DNA of 64,000 nucleotides from positions 64,001-128,000 of IMG/VR virus record IMGVR_UViG_3300028591_000109. One strand, given 5' to 3'. Of the stretch, positions 5,456-53,447 are shown piece after piece. Position numbers and translations under genes: made by a program. Every line of letters starts with the position of its first letter. Position 1 is the first letter of the stretch. The notes below the pieces were generated by a model. It saw only the letters and a list, made by a program, of their open reading frames with translations, was not told the DNA's origin and ran no database searches. The stretch is from a virus (lineage: Duplodnaviria > Caudoviricetes).

Positions 5456-6736
5456 ATGTTAGTAACGACACAGAACGAGATTCAGAGCCTGATGCCTACG
5501 GCCCGGTGGGACAAGCCGCAGGTACTGTTCGGCTACTTAGAGGAAGAGGAAGCGGTGGCATTAGAGCCGCTGCTGGGGGCTTCGCTCTATCAGCATGTGC
5601 TGACGGAGTACGACCGGCTACGGCAGGAGTACATCGACATCACGGCTACCACCGTGCGGCCTACGGGCAAGGCCAAGCAGGACCCGCGTTTGGCGCATGC
5701 CGACGTGACGGAACGGCTGGAGCAGGTGGCGCAGGGAAAATACCGCGAGACCTACACCACGCCGGAGGAGGGCGAGAAGGAGGTGCCAGCCGCCGATATG
5801 AAGACCATCCAACTGATACGCATCTGCCAGCGCATCGAGTGGTACAGGATGCTGGCCAACAAGGCCGGACTGCTGACTATCTCGTTCAACGAGGGCGGCG
5901 GCATGAACATATCCGTAGGCGAGAGCTACGACGCTGCCGACGAGAAGGCGAAAGATCGCGCTGTGAAGGACGCGTTGGGCGGAGCCGGACGTGCCATCGA
6001 CTCGCTACTGCTGTTCCTCGAAGCCGACGCAAAGGGGGAGAAGCTGTTTACCGAGATGTGGCAGGAAGCTGATGCCTTCTACCTGAACAAAGACCTGCTG
6101 TTCCAGACGGCGACAGTGCTCGACAAGTTCCTTGACATCAAGAATCAGCGCATGGCGTATGTCTCGCTGGTGAGAGACATCCGCTTCTGTCAGAATACTT
6201 ACCTGAAGCCGAGGATTGGGGCGAAGTTGCTGAAGGCCGTGGTGGCCTTTGCCAACGACGGGGAGGCTGCGATACTATCGCAGCAAACGGGACAGGACGG
6301 CGAGGGGGCGACGGCGGGGAGCGCTGAGCATTTCGAGGAACTGCTCGAATTGCTCCGCATCGCACTGGCCTTCTATGTCGAGAGCCGACGGACGACCATC
6401 ACGCGGACAAGTCTGACGGTGAGCACGTCGGCGAGGGGCACGGGAAGCAGCATCGAGAAGGAGGAGCGGCTGGCACGGCGCGACTCTATGACCGACGCGC
6501 AACAGGCAATGGCGATGGCATGCGACTATATCGCCGAGAACCTGGAGGCGCTGGGCGACGCGGCGGTGGGTACACCTATATATAATATCGCGCGCGAGAG
6601 GGAAGCGCAGGCGGAGCGCGAGCGGCAGTGCGCCTGTGCGGCAGAGGCGCGGCGCAGGAAGGCGGCATGCGAGCAGAGCCGCAAGCGGCTGTTCACCGCT
6701 TTCCCGGCGACGCACCGGACACCGGAGATAAAATAA
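5456..6736 (+). CDS. Virion morphogenesis protein, possibly head-tail connector-like
   Basis: 426 aa, ACGACTATG leader, two repeated LG..LY/IG..LL helical units, position before protease and capsid genes. Confidence 0.55.
   Translation: MLVTTQNEIQSLMPTARWDKPQVLFGYLEEEEAVALEPLLGASLYQHVLTEYDRLRQEYIDITATTVRPTGKAKQDPRLAHADVTERLEQVAQGKYRETYTTPEEGEKEVPAADMKTIQLIRICQRIEWYRMLANKAGLLTISFNEGGGMNISVGESYDAADEKAKDRAVKDALGGAGRAIDSLLLFLEADAKGEKLFTEMWQEADAFYLNKDLLFQTATVLDKFLDIKNQRMAYVSLVRDIRFCQNTYLKPRIGAKLLKAVVAFANDGEAAILSQQTGQDGEGATAGSAEHFEELLELLRIALAFYVESRRTTITRTSLTVSTSARGTGSSIEKEERLARRDSMTDAQQAMAMACDYIAENLEALGDAAVGTPIYNIAREREAQAERERQCACAAEARRRKAACEQSRKRLFTAFPATHRTPEIK
6263..6300. repeat. REP-like palindrome inserted in frame in a CDS
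   Basis: gaggctgcgatactatcgcagcaaacgggacaggacgg; 36/38 identical to the reverse complement of 57703-57740. Confidence 0.85.
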
Positions 6737-17048: not shown

Positions 17049-17612
17049 TTACTCGGCTTGCTGGTTATCGTTCTGACTCTGCGACGGGAACAGGGCCTCG
17101 TAGGGAGCCCAGTCGATGGCATCCTTCTCCCGCCAGCCTGCGGCCAGCGTCTGGTTGATGTGGGCGACGGCCTTCACGTAGAAGTCCTGAGCGCCGGCCA
17201 TCGTCTCGAAGGTGTGGTAGACGGGCGTGCCGTCCTCCCGCTCGCCCAGCTTGAAGGTGACTGGCAGCGTCGCGCCCCCGGTCTGCACGGCGAGGTCGTA
17301 GGCCGCCTTGAAGTTGAACTGGTTCTCGCTGGAGAGCCACACAGAGACGGACTCCTCTGCGCCTTCGGGAGTCCATACGAAACCGGAGAGGATCTTCTCG
17401 TCGGTGCGGGCGTTGATGTCGGCAAGGATGGCGGCCTTCACGTCGGCAAACGAGATGGTGGCGTGCTGACGCTTGTAGAGGTAGACCTCATACCAGGAGG
17501 CAAGGCCGCCTGCCTGTTCAGGCTGCTGCAGTCCATAACATACGGTGACGCGCGAACCCTCGTCGCGCAGTGGAGCGTAGTCGCTCACGGGTCCTGTGGT
17601 CTTGTTCTTCAT
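17049..17612 (-). CDS. Phage tail-fibre-associated protein (DUF4376-like)
   Basis: VWLSSENQFNFKAAYD, TLPVTFKLG and GWREKD motifs; downstream of receptor-binding genes. Confidence 0.6.
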   Translation of the reverse strand: MKNKTTGPVSDYAPLRDEGSRVTVCYGLQQPEQAGGLASWYEVYLYKRQHATISFADVKAAILADINARTDEKILSGFVWTPEGAEESVSVWLSSENQFNFKAAYDLAVQTGGATLPVTFKLGEREDGTPVYHTFETMAGAQDFYVKAVAHINQTLAAGWREKDAIDWAPYEALFPSQSQNDNQQAE

Positions 17613-17699
17613 TGTGATAATTATTTAAATGGGTGAATAATGGTTTTATCGGGATGGCTGCGATGGTATCGCAGCATACTGGACGGAGGGAGATTTCCG

Positions 17700-18338
17700 C
17701 TATGCGGCTCGCTGCATACGGGTCATGTCGGCGTCGAAGTAGCCGATGCGCAGGTACTCGGGACGGAAAAACAGCTCGCGGCGCAGGCGGTAGCTGGCCG
17801 TCTGGCGCAGGATGCCGAGGTAGGAGTTGACCGTGCGCACCACCTTGTCGGGACGGTTGAAGTCCATCTCGCGCAGGTGGCGGCGTATGCGCTGCAGCGA
17901 GGTCAGGTTGCCGTGATCGTCGGGCATCTGGATGGGCACGTCAATGCGCCCGTCCTCCACGTCGCGCCAGTCGAGCACCAGTTCCTTGGGCAGGTACTTG
18001 TCGAACGACTTCTCCTGGAATCCCACGAAGATGTACTCGCCACCAATGTTCTTGGCGAATTTCTTCACTGCCGTGGGCGGAACAATCTCCATGTCGGGGT
18101 GCAGGCGCTTCATCTGCGAGGTGATGACCACGGCCACCAGCCACGCGCTCCACTCGTTGGCGTGCCAGTAGTTTCCGTCGCGCAGCAGGTGAACCACGTT
18201 CCACTTCTCAGGTTCCTTCCTGTCGGCCTCGATGGTTTGGATTTCCTGGTTGGTGAATCCCTTCCGCTCGCCCTGCTGCTTGGGCAGCTGGACTTTGGCA
18301 GACGGTTGGTTCTGTTGTTGTGTCTGTGTTGTTGACAT
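17700..18338 (-). pseudogene. In-frame fusion of a MutS-N-like DGR accessory protein with the C-terminal (thumb) remnant of a DGR reverse transcriptase
   Basis: aa 48-116 VVHLLRDGNYWHANEWSAWL...FVGFQEKSFDKYL resemble the MutS domain I-like accessory protein; aa ~145-212 carry VNSYLGIL..TASYRLRR typical of DGR RT C-termini; no YxDD core; adjacent to two DGR targets. Confidence 0.65.
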
Positions 18339-18365: not shown

Positions 18366-18486
18366 TTGGTTTCCTTCGTCCGCCCCACTGCTGCTGTGCC
18401 GCGCTGGGGCGCGGCGGTGCAGCAGTGAAGCGCACGAAGGAATGGTTCGGGCGGAAGTATTACTGGACCGGCCGAACCGGGAAACC
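18366..18486 (-). repeat. DGR target 3' cis element: IMH-like invariant end plus ~72-nt GC-rich hairpin (copy 1)
   Basis: Identical to 19904-20024; nested stems ttccttcgt/acgaaggaa, cactgctgc/gcagcagtg and gccgcgc/gcgcggc. Confidence 0.85.
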
Positions 18487-19353
18487 GCAGTACCGATCGT
18501 ACGCGCCCTGCGGGCGGACACCATTGGGATAGAAGTACAGGCCCCGGGCGTGGCGAGCCGAATCGAACGTCGACGACCAGAAGTAGCCACTGCCCGTGCG
18601 ATTGACCCACGAACGGCCATAGCCGAGACCGGACGCCGGAAAGAAAAGAAGATTACCGTTGATCTTCGAGCGCAGATAGAGACCGTTGATGCCGTTCACC
18701 GTCACGCGCTTGTCGGCAGCCTTCTTGGCGATGCTGGTCTCTGCCGTCACCACGTTGCCGTCGGCGTCGATGTAGTCGATATTGGCGAACAGCTCCGCGA
18801 AGTCTTCATTGCTTGGCATGCGCCAGGGGGCACCGAGGCAGGCGCGGGCGGCGTCCATCGAGGGAGGTATATTTCCCGTGAGCGTATTACCCGGCGTGTC
18901 GCCGTACACCTGTCCGTCGTACCACGGCTCTGCGGAGTTCACGCTGCCCCAGTTGTAGTCAAAGGCTGATGTGCTGCTGGGATTGTGTCCGTCGGTGTTG
19001 CCCCACGAGAAGAATGAGCACTCGTACTTGAAGGGCGATACTGCGCCGTCCACCTCCTGGAATTTCGACGCCGTGGCGAGGTCGATGGAGGCCTTGGCCC
19101 AGAGCACGCCGGAGGGCAGGCCCATGTCTACGAAGAGGTCGGTATCGACGTAGGGCTTCTGGTATTCCAGGATGTCGCTGAGTTTCTTGCCCGTCTTCAG
19201 GTCAATAACGGCATCCGTCGAGAGGGGCGTCTTGTTGGCGGGCGTACCGTCGTCGTTGAAGAGCATCACCTGTTGAGTTTTGCCGGCGGTGGTGGCTGCC
19301 GTGAGGCCGCTCTGCACGGCCTTCAGGGCGTTAAGTTTGGTAATTGTTTCCAT
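18460..19353 (-). CDS. DGR target protein 1 (C-type lectin-fold variable domain; probable receptor-binding protein)
   Basis: VDMGLPSGVLWA, WRMPS, LFFPASG, YFWSST and GFPVRPV motifs; VR at ~18463-18630. Confidence 0.85.
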   Translation of the reverse strand: METITKLNALKAVQSGLTAATTAGKTQQVMLFNDDGTPANKTPLSTDAVIDLKTGKKLSDILEYQKPYVDTDLFVDMGLPSGVLWAKASIDLATASKFQEVDGAVSPFKYECSFFSWGNTDGHNPSSTSAFDYNWGSVNSAEPWYDGQVYGDTPGNTLTGNIPPSMDAARACLGAPWRMPSNEDFAELFANIDYIDADGNVVTAETSIAKKAADKRVTVNGINGLYLRSKINGNLLFFPASGLGYGRSWVNRTGSGYFWSSTFDSARHARGLYFYPNGVRPQGAYDRYCGFPVRPVQ

Positions 19354-19433
19354 TGCTGTGTTGTATTGTTTCGTTGTTTACTGTTTCTTTTACAAAGAAG
19401 ATTGCGGCGGTGCCGTCGACGGCATCCCGTCGG

Positions 19434-19883
19434 CTATGCGCTGACCACCACCGTGCGGATCATCAGTTCGGCCACGGCCTGCAGCAGCTGCTGGCGGGTG
19501 TACTGCTGCCCGTTGGCAGTGTATGTCTCGCCCTCTAATGCCGTTATCCGTGCGTTGAGTTGGCTGACCCAGTACTCTATGCTTGCGTCGGTGAATATCT
19601 CCCACCCCTCATTGGGCGCCGGGTCGGTGACGACGAACGAGCGCTTACCGTTGACGATGTTCACCACGAACTGGCCGTTCTGCACCGTCAGCGTGCAGGG
19701 CAGGTTCTGCGTAGCGGCGGTGGCGCGGTAGAGCACGCCGTTGATGCCTACAACGGCGTTATTCGGGAACGTCGATGCAGGCGTGAGCGTCGAGATGTCC
19801 ACAGGCAGCAATGCCCCTGCCTCATAAGCCATCTGCAGCTGCCCGAGGTTGACGGCCTTTTCAAGAGTGTTATTGCTTGGCAT
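19434..19883 (-). CDS. Tail-fibre module protein, paralog of 20965-21411
   Basis: Near-identical first 55 aa and similar C-terminus. Confidence 0.75.
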   Translation of the reverse strand: MPSNNTLEKAVNLGQLQMAYEAGALLPVDISTLTPASTFPNNAVVGINGVLYRATAATQNLPCTLTVQNGQFVVNIVNGKRSFVVTDPAPNEGWEIFTDASIEYWVSQLNARITALEGETYTANGQQYTRQQLLQAVAELMIRTVVVSA

Positions 19884-19903
19884 ATTCTTGTTTTATTTTT
19901 CTA

Positions 19904-20024
19904 TTGGTTTCCTTCGTCCGCCCCACTGCTGCTGTGCCGCGCTGGGGCGCGGCGGTGCAGCAGTGAAGCGCACGAAGGAATGGTTCGGGCGGAAGTATTA
20001 CTGGACCGGCCGAACCGGGAAACC
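19904..20024 (-). repeat. DGR target 3' cis element (copy 2)
   Basis: Identical to 18366-18486 at offset 1538. Confidence 0.85.
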
Positions 20025-20903
20025 GTTGGACCGATTGATCGCGTACTGCGGGTTGACACCACCGGGATAGAAGTTCAGGCTCCGGGCGAGGCGAGCCGAA
20101 CTGAACGTCGACGACCAGAAGTAGCCATTGCCCGTGCGATTGGTCCACGAACGGCCATTGCCGAAACCGGACGCCGGAAAGAAAAGAAGATTACCGTTGA
20201 TCTTCGAGCGCAGGTAGAGGCCGTTGATGCCGTTCACCGTCACGCGCTTGTCGGCAGCCGTCTTGGCGATGCTGGTCTCTGCCGTCACCACGTTGCCGTC
20301 GGCGTCGATGTAGTCGATATTGGCGAACAGCTCCGTGAAGTCCTCATTGCTCGGCATGCGCCAGGGCGCACCGAGGCAGGCGCGGGCGGCGTCCATCGAG
20401 GGCGGAATGTTGCCCGTGAGCGTATTACCCGGCGTGTCGCCGTACACCTGTCCGTCGTAGTAGGGCTCCTGCTCGTTCACGCCGCCCCAGTTGTAATCAA
20501 AAGCGGATGTACTGCTGGGATTGTGTCCGTCGGTGTTGCCCCAAGAGAAGAATGAGCACTCGTACTTGAAGGGCGATACTGCGCCGTCCACCTCCTGGAA
20601 TTTCGACGTCGTGGTGAGGTCGATGGAGGCCTTGGCCCAGAGCACGCCGGAGGGCAGGCCCATGTCTACGAAGAGGTCGCTGTCGACGTATGGCTTCTGG
20701 TATTCCAGGATGTCGCTGAGTTTCTTGCCCGTCTTCAGGTCGATGACGGCATCGGTCGAGAGGGGCGTCTTGCCGTTAGGTGCTCCGTCGGGTCCGAAGA
20801 GCATCTGTGTCTGTGTCTTCAACGCCGTGTCTTGCGCCGTGAGTCCGCTCTGCACGGTCTTCAGCGCTTGTTGAATGGTTACTGTTCCAACATTGTCTGC
20901 CAT
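19998..20903 (-). CDS. DGR target protein 2 (paralog of target 1)
   Basis: Near-identical core to 18460-19353; VR differs only at codon positions 1-2 of NNY codons. Confidence 0.85.
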   Translation of the reverse strand: MADNVGTVTIQQALKTVQSGLTAQDTALKTQTQMLFGPDGAPNGKTPLSTDAVIDLKTGKKLSDILEYQKPYVDSDLFVDMGLPSGVLWAKASIDLTTTSKFQEVDGAVSPFKYECSFFSWGNTDGHNPSSTSAFDYNWGGVNEQEPYYDGQVYGDTPGNTLTGNIPPSMDAARACLGAPWRMPSNEDFTELFANIDYIDADGNVVTAETSIAKTAADKRVTVNGINGLYLRSKINGNLLFFPASGFGNGRSWTNRTGNGYFWSSTFSSARLARSLNFYPGGVNPQYAINRSNGFPVRPVQ

Positions 20904-20964: not shown

Positions 20965-21411
20965 TCACTGCGTGACAATGGTTTTATCCATCAGCTCGGC
21001 CACGGCCTGCAGTAACTGTCGGCGCGTATATTGTTTTCCGTTGGCGGTGTAGGTCTCGGTCTCCAGTGCCGAGATTCTTTGGTCGGCCAGCGAGTAGGCG
21101 TAGGCCATGCCCGCGTCCATCCACACCTCCCAGTCGGCGTTGACGGTCATGTCCTGCACGACGAAGGCCTGCTGTCCGTTCACCTCATGGGTGACGAACT
21201 TGCCGTCGCTCACCACCATCGTCAGCGGCATCGAGGCCGTGGCCCGCTTGGCGCGGTAGAGCACGCCGCCGATGCCGATGACGGCGTTCTTCGGGAACGT
21301 CGATGCAGGCGTGAGCGTCGAGATGTCTACGGGCAGCAATGCCCCCGCCTCATAAGCCATCTGCAGCTGCCCGAGGTTGACGGCCTTTTTAAGAGTGTTA
21401 TTGCTTGGCAT
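20965..21411 (-). CDS. Tail-fibre module protein, paralog of 19434-19883
   Basis: 148 aa; duplicated together with its downstream DGR target. Confidence 0.75.
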   Translation of the reverse strand: MPSNNTLKKAVNLGQLQMAYEAGALLPVDISTLTPASTFPKNAVIGIGGVLYRAKRATASMPLTMVVSDGKFVTHEVNGQQAFVVQDMTVNADWEVWMDAGMAYAYSLADQRISALETETYTANGKQYTRRQLLQAVAELMDKTIVTQ

Positions 21412-27965: not shown

Positions 27966-27999
27966 ATTATATATATAATGCGGATGAAGGTCAAGGGCA
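27966..27999 (-). promoter_or_regulatory. Promoter-like motif TGCCCTTGA-N20-ATAAT (6 of 9)
   Basis: Leftward member of a divergent pair. Confidence 0.75.
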
Positions 28000-28015
28000 G
28001 GATTTCTATTCCGAG

Positions 28016-28090
28016 CCACAGAATTTTTATTATAGCCCACAGAAATTTCAAAGAAGCCCACAGAATTTTAATTTCAGCCCACAGAATTTT
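28016..28090. repeat. Four direct repeats CCACAGAA(A/T)TTT with exact 21-bp period
   Basis: Cores start at 28016, 28037, 28058 and 28079, between the divergent promoter motifs. Confidence 0.9.
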
Positions 28091-28103
28091 CGTTCCGCCT
28101 GCC

Positions 28104-28167: not shown

Positions 28168-31056
28168 ATGGAACATCTTGCACTTGAGGTTTTCGACCTC
28201 GCTACTAAGGAGAACCCGAACCCTACCGGCAGCCAGTATGCCGTGCTGGAGCCGGACGCAACCATCACCATCACCGACACGTCGGAGATTTTTGCTGACG
28301 GCGATGTGTGGTCCTACGACTTTACGCTGAACGTCCGCGCCAACGCGCACCTGTTCGCCACGGCTGGCGACATTCACGGCTCACGGTTGCACGAGCAGAT
28401 CAATAAGCGGAAGGCCCGCCTGTGGGTGGAGGGCGTGCCGCTCTACTTAGGCTACCTGAAGCTCGGCGATGAAGCGGAGGTGGATGCGGAGGGCAACGTG
28501 GACGTCAGCTTCGAGAGCGGACAGAAAACGTTTGAGGAGTTGATAGAGGGAGCCAAGGCCAACCAGGTGCCGATGATAGGAAATGTCAAGATTGGCGTGG
28601 CACTCTGGCAGAAACGCCAAGTCTCTTACAATTTAAAACTCAGAGCGTCTGCTATTTTTGAGAATAAAAAAGAATCAAAGGATGGGGAGATAAAAGAAAC
28701 CCTTAACGATTCTAACCTAATCACGTTTACAAGCGATGACGAACAGAACCCCGTCCAACAATACCCCAGGATGGTGTTTCCTGTGGGCACTTTCAAAGAT
28801 TGGAGCGACTATAAGGACACTACCTACGATGTTAATGAACTCAACACTGACAGCCCTTATACCGAAAACGAAAATGGTGTACCGACGCATCCGTTCTGTA
28901 ATGTAGCATTATGTTATCAGCGGCAGGGTTATGAAAAGAAAAACGAAAGAGACGAACTGATACCAGACTACACCAGCGAGCCGGAGGCGCAGCGAGGCTA
29001 CGAATACATGCCCGCTAAACGTGTGAACTCCGCGCCAAACTTCTTTGTGCTCTACTGGTTCCGTGCATTGATGAACCATCTTGGCATCTATATCGAAGAG
29101 AACCAAATGCTTGATGTAGAGGATTTGCGCAGACTATTCTTCGTGAACACCAATTGTGCGTACAAGGTGCCGAAAAGAAAATTCTACACGGGTGATGACA
29201 TCAGCTGGTACCAATTCCTTCCAAGTACTGGCAGATTGGTGCCTGAATACTACAACATCGAGAAGAATTTTAATAAAGAAGAAAGTGCATTTAAGAGCGT
29301 GGAAGACGGGTTTACCGTAAGCACACCGATAATAGATCCATCCACAGCCGCCTCACTTATCCCGCAGTCAATAATACCGACCATCGACCGCATTGCCGTT
29401 AAGGTAAGCGAAGTCAGCAAAAGCAACGAAGATGCACAGAAACACGTATATGAGAACAACAACCGCTGGCTCCATGATGCCTATGCCACGAGCGACTGTT
29501 TCCCGAATGTAGACATCTCGGAAGTCATCAATGCCATAGAGAGCGGATTCGGTGTGCGTCTGCTATTCAGCAACGACTATAAGCGGGTAAGGATTGTGCT
29601 GCTGCGCAATGTATTCCGGAACGAGGATGTACAGGACATAACGTGCGAGATTGTGGACGAGGATGTTAAGGTGGAGAATAATATCCGTGGCTTCCGCATG
29701 ACCTACGGCAATACGGAGGACACCCATTTCTACTACAAGGGCTTTGCCGACATGTTGCCGCACAAGAAAGAACTGTGGGCAGACACAAGCGACGAGCATG
29801 ACTATTCGCACTGGGATTTGAATGCCATCTATGCCAACATCATACACAAGGTGTCGGCCTTCGACAAGACCTGCTATGTGACACCCAACACAGGCAATGC
29901 CTATGGTATTAAGATTGACAAGGACGCCAAGCGTTATGACGAGCTACATCCATCGCTTTTCGGGTACGGTGAGTTTATGGATGCCGAAGACGGCGACTGT
30001 ACTGGCGAAGACGAGACCATCAAGACTGTCAACATGGGCTTCACCCCCGCCATTATGAACGACCTGAACATGGAGGAAGAACGCGAAAACGGCTCACGCG
30101 AACAGCGGTTTGCTCTATTTGTCGGCGAGACGATGCGTCCTCGTCGGCCTGAACTGATAGAAGGCACTGATTACAATGACCCTGAAACAGTATATCCTAT
30201 GGATGGAGAATATGGGCTATACGGTGACAAGTCGAAGGCAAAGGATATGAAGTCAGACGGCATCGTAAAGCCTGGCGAGTTCGCAGTGAGGTCGGATATG
30301 TATGCCAGTGCGAGCGGTCTTAAAACCACAGTTCGCTATCTCCTCAAATACGTTGACATGTCTTTTTTCGACGGACCAGACTCCGTACCCGTGTATGCGC
30401 AATGGGATATTACTAACCTGAATATCGACGGTCATATCAACGAGGGCTACCGCCTGTATCTGCAGGACAACTACGAACCTAACGACGACGGCATCTCGCC
30501 TATCGAGACGCACGACTGGGGCTTGACGCTGGGCATCATGCGCGGCAGCGGCAGCGACGCCTACGTAAACTACACGGCCGATCCTGACGACGGCGAGGGC
30601 AACGACACATGGGACATCATGGCCGGCAGCAGCGTGACGGCACACCCGGACACCTGCGACTCGTATGGCAACGAGTGGGACTACAACGGAGACGCTGAAG
30701 GGATAGGCGACCCCGACGGCAGGGTCAGCCTGAAGCTCCGGGCAGAAAAGCCTAACCCTTATTACAACCCGCATCTGCCGGAGAGCGACAGCAACCGCCG
30801 TTATCTGCAGATTTCCAATAAGAACCTGCGGCAGCGCGGCCTCGCTGACCAGTTCTACAAGGAGTACAGCTTCTGGGTGCGCAATGCCCGCATCGTGAAA
30901 CGGACGGTACGCATGACGCTGGCACAGCTGCTGACCATCGACAAGACAAAACGTGTCAACGTAGGTGACGTGACGGGATTCATCAGGAAGATGCAGTATT
31001 CGGTGAGTAACGAGACGGGGCTTGGCAATGTAACGATGGAGATAATGTATATATGA
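28168..31056 (+). CDS. Large tail/baseplate hub-like structural protein
   Basis: 962 aa, acidic, preceded by the virion-gene promoter motif. Confidence 0.6.
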   Translation: MEHLALEVFDLATKENPNPTGSQYAVLEPDATITITDTSEIFADGDVWSYDFTLNVRANAHLFATAGDIHGSRLHEQINKRKARLWVEGVPLYLGYLKLGDEAEVDAEGNVDVSFESGQKTFEELIEGAKANQVPMIGNVKIGVALWQKRQVSYNLKLRASAIFENKKESKDGEIKETLNDSNLITFTSDDEQNPVQQYPRMVFPVGTFKDWSDYKDTTYDVNELNTDSPYTENENGVPTHPFCNVALCYQRQGYEKKNERDELIPDYTSEPEAQRGYEYMPAKRVNSAPNFFVLYWFRALMNHLGIYIEENQMLDVEDLRRLFFVNTNCAYKVPKRKFYTGDDISWYQFLPSTGRLVPEYYNIEKNFNKEESAFKSVEDGFTVSTPIIDPSTAASLIPQSIIPTIDRIAVKVSEVSKSNEDAQKHVYENNNRWLHDAYATSDCFPNVDISEVINAIESGFGVRLLFSNDYKRVRIVLLRNVFRNEDVQDITCEIVDEDVKVENNIRGFRMTYGNTEDTHFYYKGFADMLPHKKELWADTSDEHDYSHWDLNAIYANIIHKVSAFDKTCYVTPNTGNAYGIKIDKDAKRYDELHPSLFGYGEFMDAEDGDCTGEDETIKTVNMGFTPAIMNDLNMEEERENGSREQRFALFVGETMRPRRPELIEGTDYNDPETVYPMDGEYGLYGDKSKAKDMKSDGIVKPGEFAVRSDMYASASGLKTTVRYLLKYVDMSFFDGPDSVPVYAQWDITNLNIDGHINEGYRLYLQDNYEPNDDGISPIETHDWGLTLGIMRGSGSDAYVNYTADPDDGEGNDTWDIMAGSSVTAHPDTCDSYGNEWDYNGDAEGIGDPDGRVSLKLRAEKPNPYYNPHLPESDSNRRYLQISNKNLRQRGLADQFYKEYSFWVRNARIVKRTVRMTLAQLLTIDKTKRVNVGDVTGFIRKMQYSVSNETGLGNVTMEIMYI

Positions 31057-52900: not shown

Positions 52901-52960
52901 AATGCTTGAATTGTTTTTGTTGGGGTTTTAATTGGGGTTGAAATGGGGTTGGAAAAGTGA

Positions 52961-53032
52961 TCTCTCAATCCACTTGCAAGGTGCTCTCTCAATGCAGTTG
53001 CAAGGTGATCTCTCAATGCAGTTGCAAGGTGA
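52961..53032. repeat. Three tandem 24-bp repeats TCTCTCAATGCAGTTGCAAGGTGA
   Basis: Two identical copies and one with 3 mismatches; intergenic. Confidence 0.9.
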
Positions 53033-53036
53033 TATA

Positions 53037-53447
53037 TCAGGGTATCTCCACCACCTCGGCATCTGTCCAGTCCATCTGGTCCCAATCGAGGTCGTAGCAA
53101 GTCAGTGTCTTCTCGTCGCAGTCGATGACGTAGCCATAGGCACTGTCGCCGTGTGGCGCAATGGCACACTGGTATTCCATGTCTGGCTTCTCCTCCTTAG
53201 TGTAGTAGTCGACGACCTTACAGGCCCCGCGCACCAGGTCGGTGGCGATTGCCTCTGCATTCCACCCGCCGTCGGTATAGTCGTTGCGGTCTTTCAGGAA
53301 TTTCTTCAGTGCGCTTCCTACGCCTTCAGGGTAACCGTCATGGTGGTGATACAGCAAGATTTCGCGCTCGGTCAGTTTGTCCTGCTCCATGTCCGCGTCG
53401 GTCATATAGACGCGCTCTTTGATTCTGATTGTTGCTCTTGTGCTCAT
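53037..53447 (-). CDS. Conserved phage protein
   Basis: MSTRA..., LYHHHDGYPEGVG motif. Confidence 0.65.
   Translation of the reverse strand: MSTRATIRIKERVYMTDADMEQDKLTEREILLYHHHDGYPEGVGSALKKFLKDRNDYTDGGWNAEAIATDLVRGACKVVDYYTKEEKPDMEYQCAIAPHGDSAYGYVIDCDEKTLTCYDLDWDQMDWTDAEVVEIP

Follow-up and report, generated by a model that had tools for sequence, protein, structure and literature searches.

The stretch of DNA analysed here (the window, 64,000 nucleotides) corresponds to bases 64001-128000 of a single 141,567-bp viral record, IMGVR_UViG_3300028591_000109, with a CheckV completeness of 100%, and it holds what is left of a diversity-generating retroelement (DGR). DGRs are reverse-transcriptase systems that randomise adenines. 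Two paralogous target genes lie in tandem on the minus strand. The first, T1 (18460..19353), defined by its open reading frame (ORF) and translation, encodes a protein of 297 amino acids (aa) with a 'MET...' allele type, and the second, T2 (19998..20903), defined by its ORF, encodes a 301-aa protein with a 'MADN...' allele type. Each has an upstream partner ORF on the same strand, of 149 aa for T1 (19434..19883) and of 148 aa for T2 (20965..21411). Both target genes end in a variable region (VR) homologous to the template repeat (TR) found in related phages. VR1 (18463..18649, minus strand) has its mutable adenine columns at 18488-18627 and an end resembling an initiation of mutagenic homing (IMH) site at 18463-18486, and VR2 (20001..20187, minus strand) has them at 20026-20165 and 20001-20024, respectively. 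The relation of VR1 to the TR comes from an ungapped alignment with the TRs of three related contigs (L001, L002 and L014). Further along, still on the minus strand, are a 212-aa ORF (17700..18338) and a DUF4376 gene (17049..17612; Pfam DUF4376, E 2e-9), the conserved downstream flank of the cassette.

The first-pass annotation of this DNA, made from the letters alone, had drawn attention to the way in which the two VRs differ. Repeating the count codon by codon between 18487-18627 and 20025-20165 (constant offset 1538) gave the same result, 22 substitutions in 15 of 47 codons. All 22 are at codon positions 1 or 2, position 3 is free of differences, and every differing codon ends in C or T, as had been described. 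The two nearest upstream differences are indeed synonymous (TAT/TAC at 18676 and GGT/GGC at 18682). By chance, the codon-position pattern alone has a probability of (2/3)^22 = 1.3e-4, and an A is present in one of the copies at 19 of the 22 differing sites. Placed on the 191-nt TR of the relatives, the VR1/VR2 differences all fall on its 42 adenine columns (22/22), leaving the 149 others without any (Fisher p = 1.3e-17). Outside the VRs, the paralogs diverge by 4-6% over the remainder of their conserved C-terminal half, a level at which 6-9 non-adenine differences would be expected in the VRs; none was observed (P = 0.003 to 0.0002).

The relatives that supplied this TR carry complete cassettes. 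A scan of viral contigs guided by protein sequence turned up L001, part of a 134-kb record with a completeness of 100%, and L002. In both, one target is closely followed by an RVT_1 gene and a third copy of the repeat. The same cassette order was found in further relatives (L014, L016/L017, L018, L019 and L022), and in eight related contigs it reads target (297-301 aa), 226-aa gene, TR, 398-aa reverse transcriptase (RT) and DUF4376 gene. A single target was present in all ten relative contigs examined. When the VR of six relatives was compared with their own TR, mismatches fell at adenines in 22/22, 16/16, 19/19, 19/19, 18/18 and 13/14 cases, and the non-adenine TR variants of each lineage reappeared in the VR of that lineage, which together give the picture expected of an active DGR. 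The RT of these relatives carries GNLTSQ and YVDD motifs, and its best match among solved structures is a 328-aa RT (8ub7_A, E 5e-27), probably the Bordetella bRT. With tblastn it also matches the RT genes of Bacteroides uniformis phages F1/F2/F4 and of Bordetella phages. Judged by both motifs and matches, the RT is DGR-like; DGR-bearing B. uniformis phages have been described (PMC8143477).

As the genome under study has no TR of its own, its VRs were aligned to that of a relative. In an alignment of 187 nt that ends with the last sense codon, 22 of the 25 mismatches between VR1 and the L001 TR are at adenines, and 15 of 18 for VR2. The three non-adenine mismatches that remain, at columns 8, 22 and 124 (T8, T22 and C124), are the same in both VRs, and their combination occurs in none of the eight sampled TRs. 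Being shared, they look like lineage-specific TR states. These identical non-adenine states, taken with the absence of any difference at the 149 non-adenine columns, indicate that both VRs were last overwritten from one TR. A single lost TR, most simply that of the lineage itself, probably served both targets, and on the evidence of these alignments both VRs are genuine DGR products. The earlier reading of the differences as mutagenic retrohoming is upheld by the existence, in relatives, of a homologous TR that is linked to an RT and mismatches the VRs at adenines, and its view that both genes were diversified from one TR gains support from the identical non-adenine states. The TR that it had proposed to look for is present in relatives and was not found in the phage's own record, and mismatches were at adenines only, save for the three shared states. 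The peptide that it had predicted for the TR agrees at 53 of 57 residues with the translation of the relatives' TR, SGNGNGRSWNNRTGNGNFWSSTFNSARNARNLNFNPNGVNPQNTNNRYNGFPVRPVQ, which has GNFW, FNP, NTN and RYN where GYFW, FYP, NAN and RNN had been proposed.

Two side observations concern the relatives. At TR column 65 (window 18585 and 20123), the TR has AAC (Asn, in GNFW) and the distinct VRs have TAC (Tyr, GYFW) in 8/9 cases and GAC in 1/9, which suggests that this mutable adenine is seemingly always selected to one outcome and may be a scaffold position. Moreover, the short-read contigs L020, L021 and L031 stop within ~10 nt past the target stop codon. Such stops fit assembly breaks at the VR/TR repeat or at the hairpin that follows the VR, and the cassettes of this clade would then often be split in public assemblies.

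Neither a TR nor a complete RT was detected in the genome that holds the window. A permissive blastn (word size 7) of the VR against the whole 141,567-bp record found only the two VR copies, and RVT_1 gave no match at E<=1 in that record. The RT of the relatives, searched by tblastn against the whole record, aligned only through its residues 332-398, at 17903-17703, and the accessory protein (the product of the 226-aa gene) through its residues 1-146, at 18338-17901. The blastn synteny pairs L001 9496-11466 with window 19894-17900 and L001 13085-13897 with window 17902-17086, and the 1,618 bp in between (L001 11467-13084) are absent from the window. With this segment went the final 80 codons of the 226-aa gene, the TR in full and residues 1-331 of the RT, among them the YVDD catalytic core. 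At the deletion junction (17900-17902) there is a 3-nt CCT microhomology. The 212-aa ORF is the scar of this deletion, joining in frame accessory residues 1-146 to the last 67 residues of the RT, and the DUF4376 gene, which comes after the RT in every relative, marks its far side. The identical 212-aa fusion protein is found on three contigs of different assemblies: a 135,167-bp ENA contig, another large one and one of 1,327 bp from Logan (SRR8436538). The ENA contig keeps the gene order 148/301/149/297/212/187, and the exact T1 and T2 proteins were found on 2 and 3 contigs, respectively. As fusion protein and gene order recur across contigs, they are unlikely to come from a single misassembly. 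What this genome retains is a decayed cassette: two targets are orphaned, and the RT and the TR of a functional DGR are both missing. Thus, the DGR signature reported earlier is real and belongs to the past of this phage rather than to its present, since its own TR and RT have been deleted.

The cis-acting sequences around the VRs are still in place. VRs and TRs share an identical 24-mer, GGTTTCCCGGTTCGGCCGGTCCAG, which forms a GC-rich IMH-like 3' end, and beyond it the VRs continue with TAATACTTCC and the TRs with CAATCTCAGC. An exact scan for this 24-mer gave only L001 and L002 among viral contigs and added L014 from metagenome contigs; in 185,579 prokaryote genomes it gave nothing that could point to a host or a prophage. 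Among 50,697 deposited phage records, blastn found no match to the locus. A hairpin or cruciform follows each target on the minus strand: copy 1 (18371..18442) lies 18 nt past the T1 stop codon and ~21 nt from the end of VR1, and copy 2 (19909..19980), downstream of T2, is identical to it in sequence. It consists of ~29 pairs; its apical part, starting ~50 nt past the VR, is a 7-bp GC stem closed by a 4-nt loop that reads CCCA on the sense strand. The DNA fold has an energy of -46.5 kcal/mol (z -8.6), and compensatory changes were seen in 10/29 pairs across 8 phages. For DGR hairpins, a 7-10-bp GC stem, a 4-nt GRNA loop and a location 4-34 bp from the VR have been described (PMC3240598). We also considered an intrinsic terminator and rejected it, as no T-run follows the hairpin on either strand.

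The accessory gene (L001:11028-11708; window remnant 17901-18338) has a counterpart of 209-250 aa in all the relatives examined, whether close or distant and with L026, L028 and L029 among them, always lying between target and TR. Its 226-aa product had no match in Pfam, NCBIfam or PHROGs, and Avd, the small basic four-helix-bundle accessory of DGRs (PF05635), had none in the whole records G000 (the phage of the window), G001 and G002. A structural model of the accessory protein, with a predicted local distance difference test (pLDDT) score of 73.5, gave no Foldseek match at E<=0.001, a PDB profile search gave nothing specific, and the VIA-align rows covered only its C-terminal helical hairpin. 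One lead came from ESM-Atlas features, where it clusters with proteins of which 17% carry MutS_I. It may be an undescribed DGR accessory or a MutS-like one. MutS-like (MSL) accessories resemble MutS domain I, measure 112-283 aa and were always accompanied by avd in a published survey (PMC5758913), whereas no avd was found in the three whole records of this clade. As a separate observation, an ORF of ~400-420 aa with MutS_I lies far from the DGR, at G000:C1:134348-134602 (outside the window, E 3e-31) and at G001:C1:19812-20084 (E 3e-26).

The target proteins themselves gave weak family matches. Pfam Fib_succ_major was hit by T1 at E 0.0016, below the cut-off, and by T2 at E 1.1e-4, with scores of 19-23 bits for the targets against a gathering cut-off of 33.9. 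Among 30 members of the target family, Fib_succ_major matched 19/30 and Lcl_C 8/30, and the ESM-Atlas neighbours of the target carry DUF8237 or Fib_succ_major. Searches of the PDB by sequence and by profile returned nothing meaningful for the target, and its AlphaFold2 model, built on a 30-sequence alignment, had a mean pLDDT of 54.8, and ~30 across the VR, too poor for a fold search. Among the partner ORFs, the 149-aa one has no family match. The 148-aa ORF at 20965-21411 is in part a paralog of the 149-aa one (19434-19883), as seen in repeat families D4 and D9, and its counterparts by synteny are the 148-aa ORFs of L001, L019 and L022.

How did two targets come to stand side by side in this phage? 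Two allele types of the target are found in the relatives: a 297-aa 'MET...' type behind a 149-aa ORF (L002, L014 and L018), and a 300-301-aa 'MADN...' type behind a 148-aa ORF (L001, L016, L019, L022 and L030). L018, of the 297-aa type, has its 149-aa ORF at the same place as the window, and the 301-aa types have the 148-aa ORF. Over its first 50 residues, T1 has 86% identity with the L002/L014/L018 alleles and 52-68% with those of the other type, and T2 outside its VR is 92% identical to the L001/L019/L022 alleles. A simple tandem duplication in situ was rejected, since over these first 50 aa T1 and T2 are 60% identical to each other and each is 84-90% identical to different alleles elsewhere (T2 is within that range of its own allele type). 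As T1 and T2 are each closest to their own allele type in other phages, the pair consists of two joined alleles. The joining probably took place by unequal recombination between phages, and, as the shared non-adenine states of the VRs indicate, one TR probably served both targets after it.

The VRs were also compared between close strains. Between the window and a strain represented by a Logan contig (L023, SRR10838683), 7 of 2,555 nt differ, and VR2 is free of differences. Four of the seven (window 20336-20367) carry the states of the T1 paralog, forming a short gene-conversion tract in T2, which implies that L023 also holds both paralogs. Among relatives with an intact DGR, L002 and L014/L018 have 1 mismatch in 1,500 nt of flank and differ at 16 VR sites, and L001 and L019 have 14 differences in the flank and 25 in the VR. 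From the one strain comparison available for the deleted lineage, we infer that its VRs are most likely no longer turning over and that the tips they encode are frozen relics.

We regard it as highly probable that the VRs were written by a DGR from a single TR and that the machinery was then lost by the 1,618-bp deletion. Both VRs would have been produced by adenine-mutagenic retrohoming from one TR close to those of the sister phages. The deletion, flanked by microhomology, came afterwards on this reading; it took away the TR, RT residues 1-331 and a third of the accessory gene at its 3' end, and it left the in-frame fusion of the accessory protein with the RT tail, with the VRs, their IMH-like ends and the hairpins intact. 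The VRs would no longer be rewritable in cis and would now specify two fixed, differing binding tips. The adenine signature, the cassette of the relatives, the deletion with its fusion ORF and the lack of a TR and an RT across the record are observations; the order of events, the receptor-binding role and the freezing of the VRs are the parts of this history that we infer.

Several points weigh against this history or parts of it. The three contigs that bear the fusion may stem from overlapping samples. The record is linear, and a TR or an RT beyond its ends is formally possible; the deletion sits exactly where the relatives keep their cassette. The freezing of the VRs depends on one strain comparison, in which the L023 contig ends before the deletion site, and L023 is assigned to the deleted lineage through its T1-like gene-conversion tract. 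The IMH-like ends and hairpins are intact and identical to those of relatives that carry the DGR, so rewriting in trans could occur, and no sign of it was seen. As for the gene products, a C-type-lectin fold of the target C-termini is a candidate suggested by the sub-threshold Fib_succ_major and Lcl_C matches, and the receptor-binding role is putative, drawn from the position of the genes.

Rewriting in trans is the alternative that survives best, and we consider it improbable. Co-infecting sister phages or a resident element would supply the accessory protein, the TR RNA and the RT, these would home into whichever VR has the matching IMH and hairpin, and the VRs would still be diversified. 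Such a supply is in keeping with an IMH-like 24-mer and a hairpin that match those of DGR-intact relatives exactly or almost so, with the abundance of these relatives in the same kinds of samples and with the finding that BPP-1 homing works with the donor supplied in trans (PMC3240598). However, the same T1 and T2 proteins are found on every contig with the fusion or with the two-target layout, the VR2 of L023 has stayed the same despite divergence at 7 other sites, and T8, T22 and C124 have been retained, although homing from the TR of any sampled relative would have overwritten them. Two possible two-target contigs with other VRs were inspected (P0002 and P0003); one has a single-target layout and the other ends at the VR. 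A related idea, to which we give about as little credit, is that the DGR-less lineage may have traded hypermutation for a fixed pair with two specificities and kept its signals for rewriting in trans by co-infecting sisters. If true, this would be a natural 'recipient-only' DGR genotype that borrows the machinery of its relatives.

It is less likely still that the deletion, the tandem pair or both are artefacts of assembly, for example a chimera of two co-occurring strains collapsed across repeats, and hide a real phage with one target and an intact DGR. The sequences are metagenome assemblies, misjoins typically occur at stretches such as the VR/TR repeats and the identical 100-nt hairpin regions, and short contigs of the relatives often end at the VR. 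Nevertheless, the junction lies inside unique coding sequence and not in a repeat, is in frame and has only 3 nt of microhomology; the fusion protein and the gene order recur in JGI/IMG, ENA (ERZ27256846) and Logan (SRR8436538); and the T1-to-T2 conversion tract in L023 could form only in a genome with both paralogs. A further alternative, without any retroelement, is that diversifying selection of the ordinary kind acted on the surface residues of the two paralogs; it has next to no chance of being right: receptor-binding tips are often under positive selection and the genome has neither TR nor RT, but the placing of 22/22 differences on TR-adenine columns (p 1e-17), with none at third codon or non-A positions despite 4-6% adjacent divergence, and the variation of the same columns in relatives against their own TR speak against it, and the TR alignment refutes it to the extent that sequences can.

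The loss of a once working cassette, our preferred reading, can be set beside known systems, first of all the Bordetella BPP-1 DGR (mtd, avd, TR, brt; PMC3240598). As in BPP-1, the VR is the 3'-terminal part of a small phage structural gene and varies only at TR adenines in AAY codons, VR and TR have a GC-rich 3' end in common and diverge immediately beyond it, the VR is followed by a GC-rich inverted repeat with a 4-nt loop, and the relatives show the order target, accessory, TR and RT. Unlike BPP-1, the phage of the window is without a TR and an RT core, and there is no recognisable Avd in G000, G001 and G002; its hairpin has ~29 pairs instead of 8 and a CCCA loop instead of the GRNA consensus, and its target is Fib_succ_major/Lcl_C-like and not Mtd. 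With respect to targets, the weak mixed matches to Fib_succ_major and Lcl_C (DUF1566) recall category 'd', or CLec2, targets (DUF1566, DUF823, Fib_succ_major; for example Legionella LdtA; Wu et al. 2018, PMC5758913), as do the short protein and a VR at its extreme C-terminus, whereas the genes described here lie in a 130-140-kb phage of Bacteroidales type.

Decay of DGRs is already documented, and what is known of how they work is unchanged by this case. The same survey set aside over half of its candidate DGRs because they were truncated (PMC5758913), and some crAss-like phages of Epsilonunovirus have an RT described as 'fragmented or deleted' (PMC11054128). As in those decayed elements, RT and TR have been lost and target and VR kept, with close relatives that have complete cassettes and conserved TRs. 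The window differs from them in breakpoints defined to the base, an in-frame fusion ORF and two different orphan VRs in tandem. DGRs with several targets and one TR are also known (cited in PMC5758913); the two VRs described here likewise share their non-adenine states, IMH and hairpin, but the second target is an alternative allele of the same locus, imported with its partner ORF, and not a local duplicate. Altogether, the locus is a clean natural DGR knockout with base-level breakpoints, intact sister phages and two orphan VRs side by side. It allows the turnover of VRs to be compared with and without the machinery, the first comparison giving 0 against 16 changed sites at similar flank divergence, and it offers a natural recipient for testing the action of DGRs in trans between co-infecting phages. 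It also points to a clade of large phages of Bacteroidales type that have no recognisable Avd, a conserved 209-250-aa accessory and an unusually long hairpin after the VR.

Finally, other repeats were seen in the window. At 27995-28091, just upstream of a 962-aa gene at 28168, four tandem 21-nt units contain CCACAGAA(T/A)TTT and resemble iterons or operators. An intergenic region at 52954-53039 has three tandem 24-nt units (AAGGTG.TCTCTCAATGCAGTTGC). Intergenic hairpins of one family (GGCTGC and GCAGC around a short loop, then ATAC.G.AC) stand at gene boundaries at 6259, 8748, 10371, 12801, 13258, 17650, 22103 and 57712, and the copy at 17650-17685 directly follows the fusion ORF; this family is probably a phage terminator or regulatory motif.

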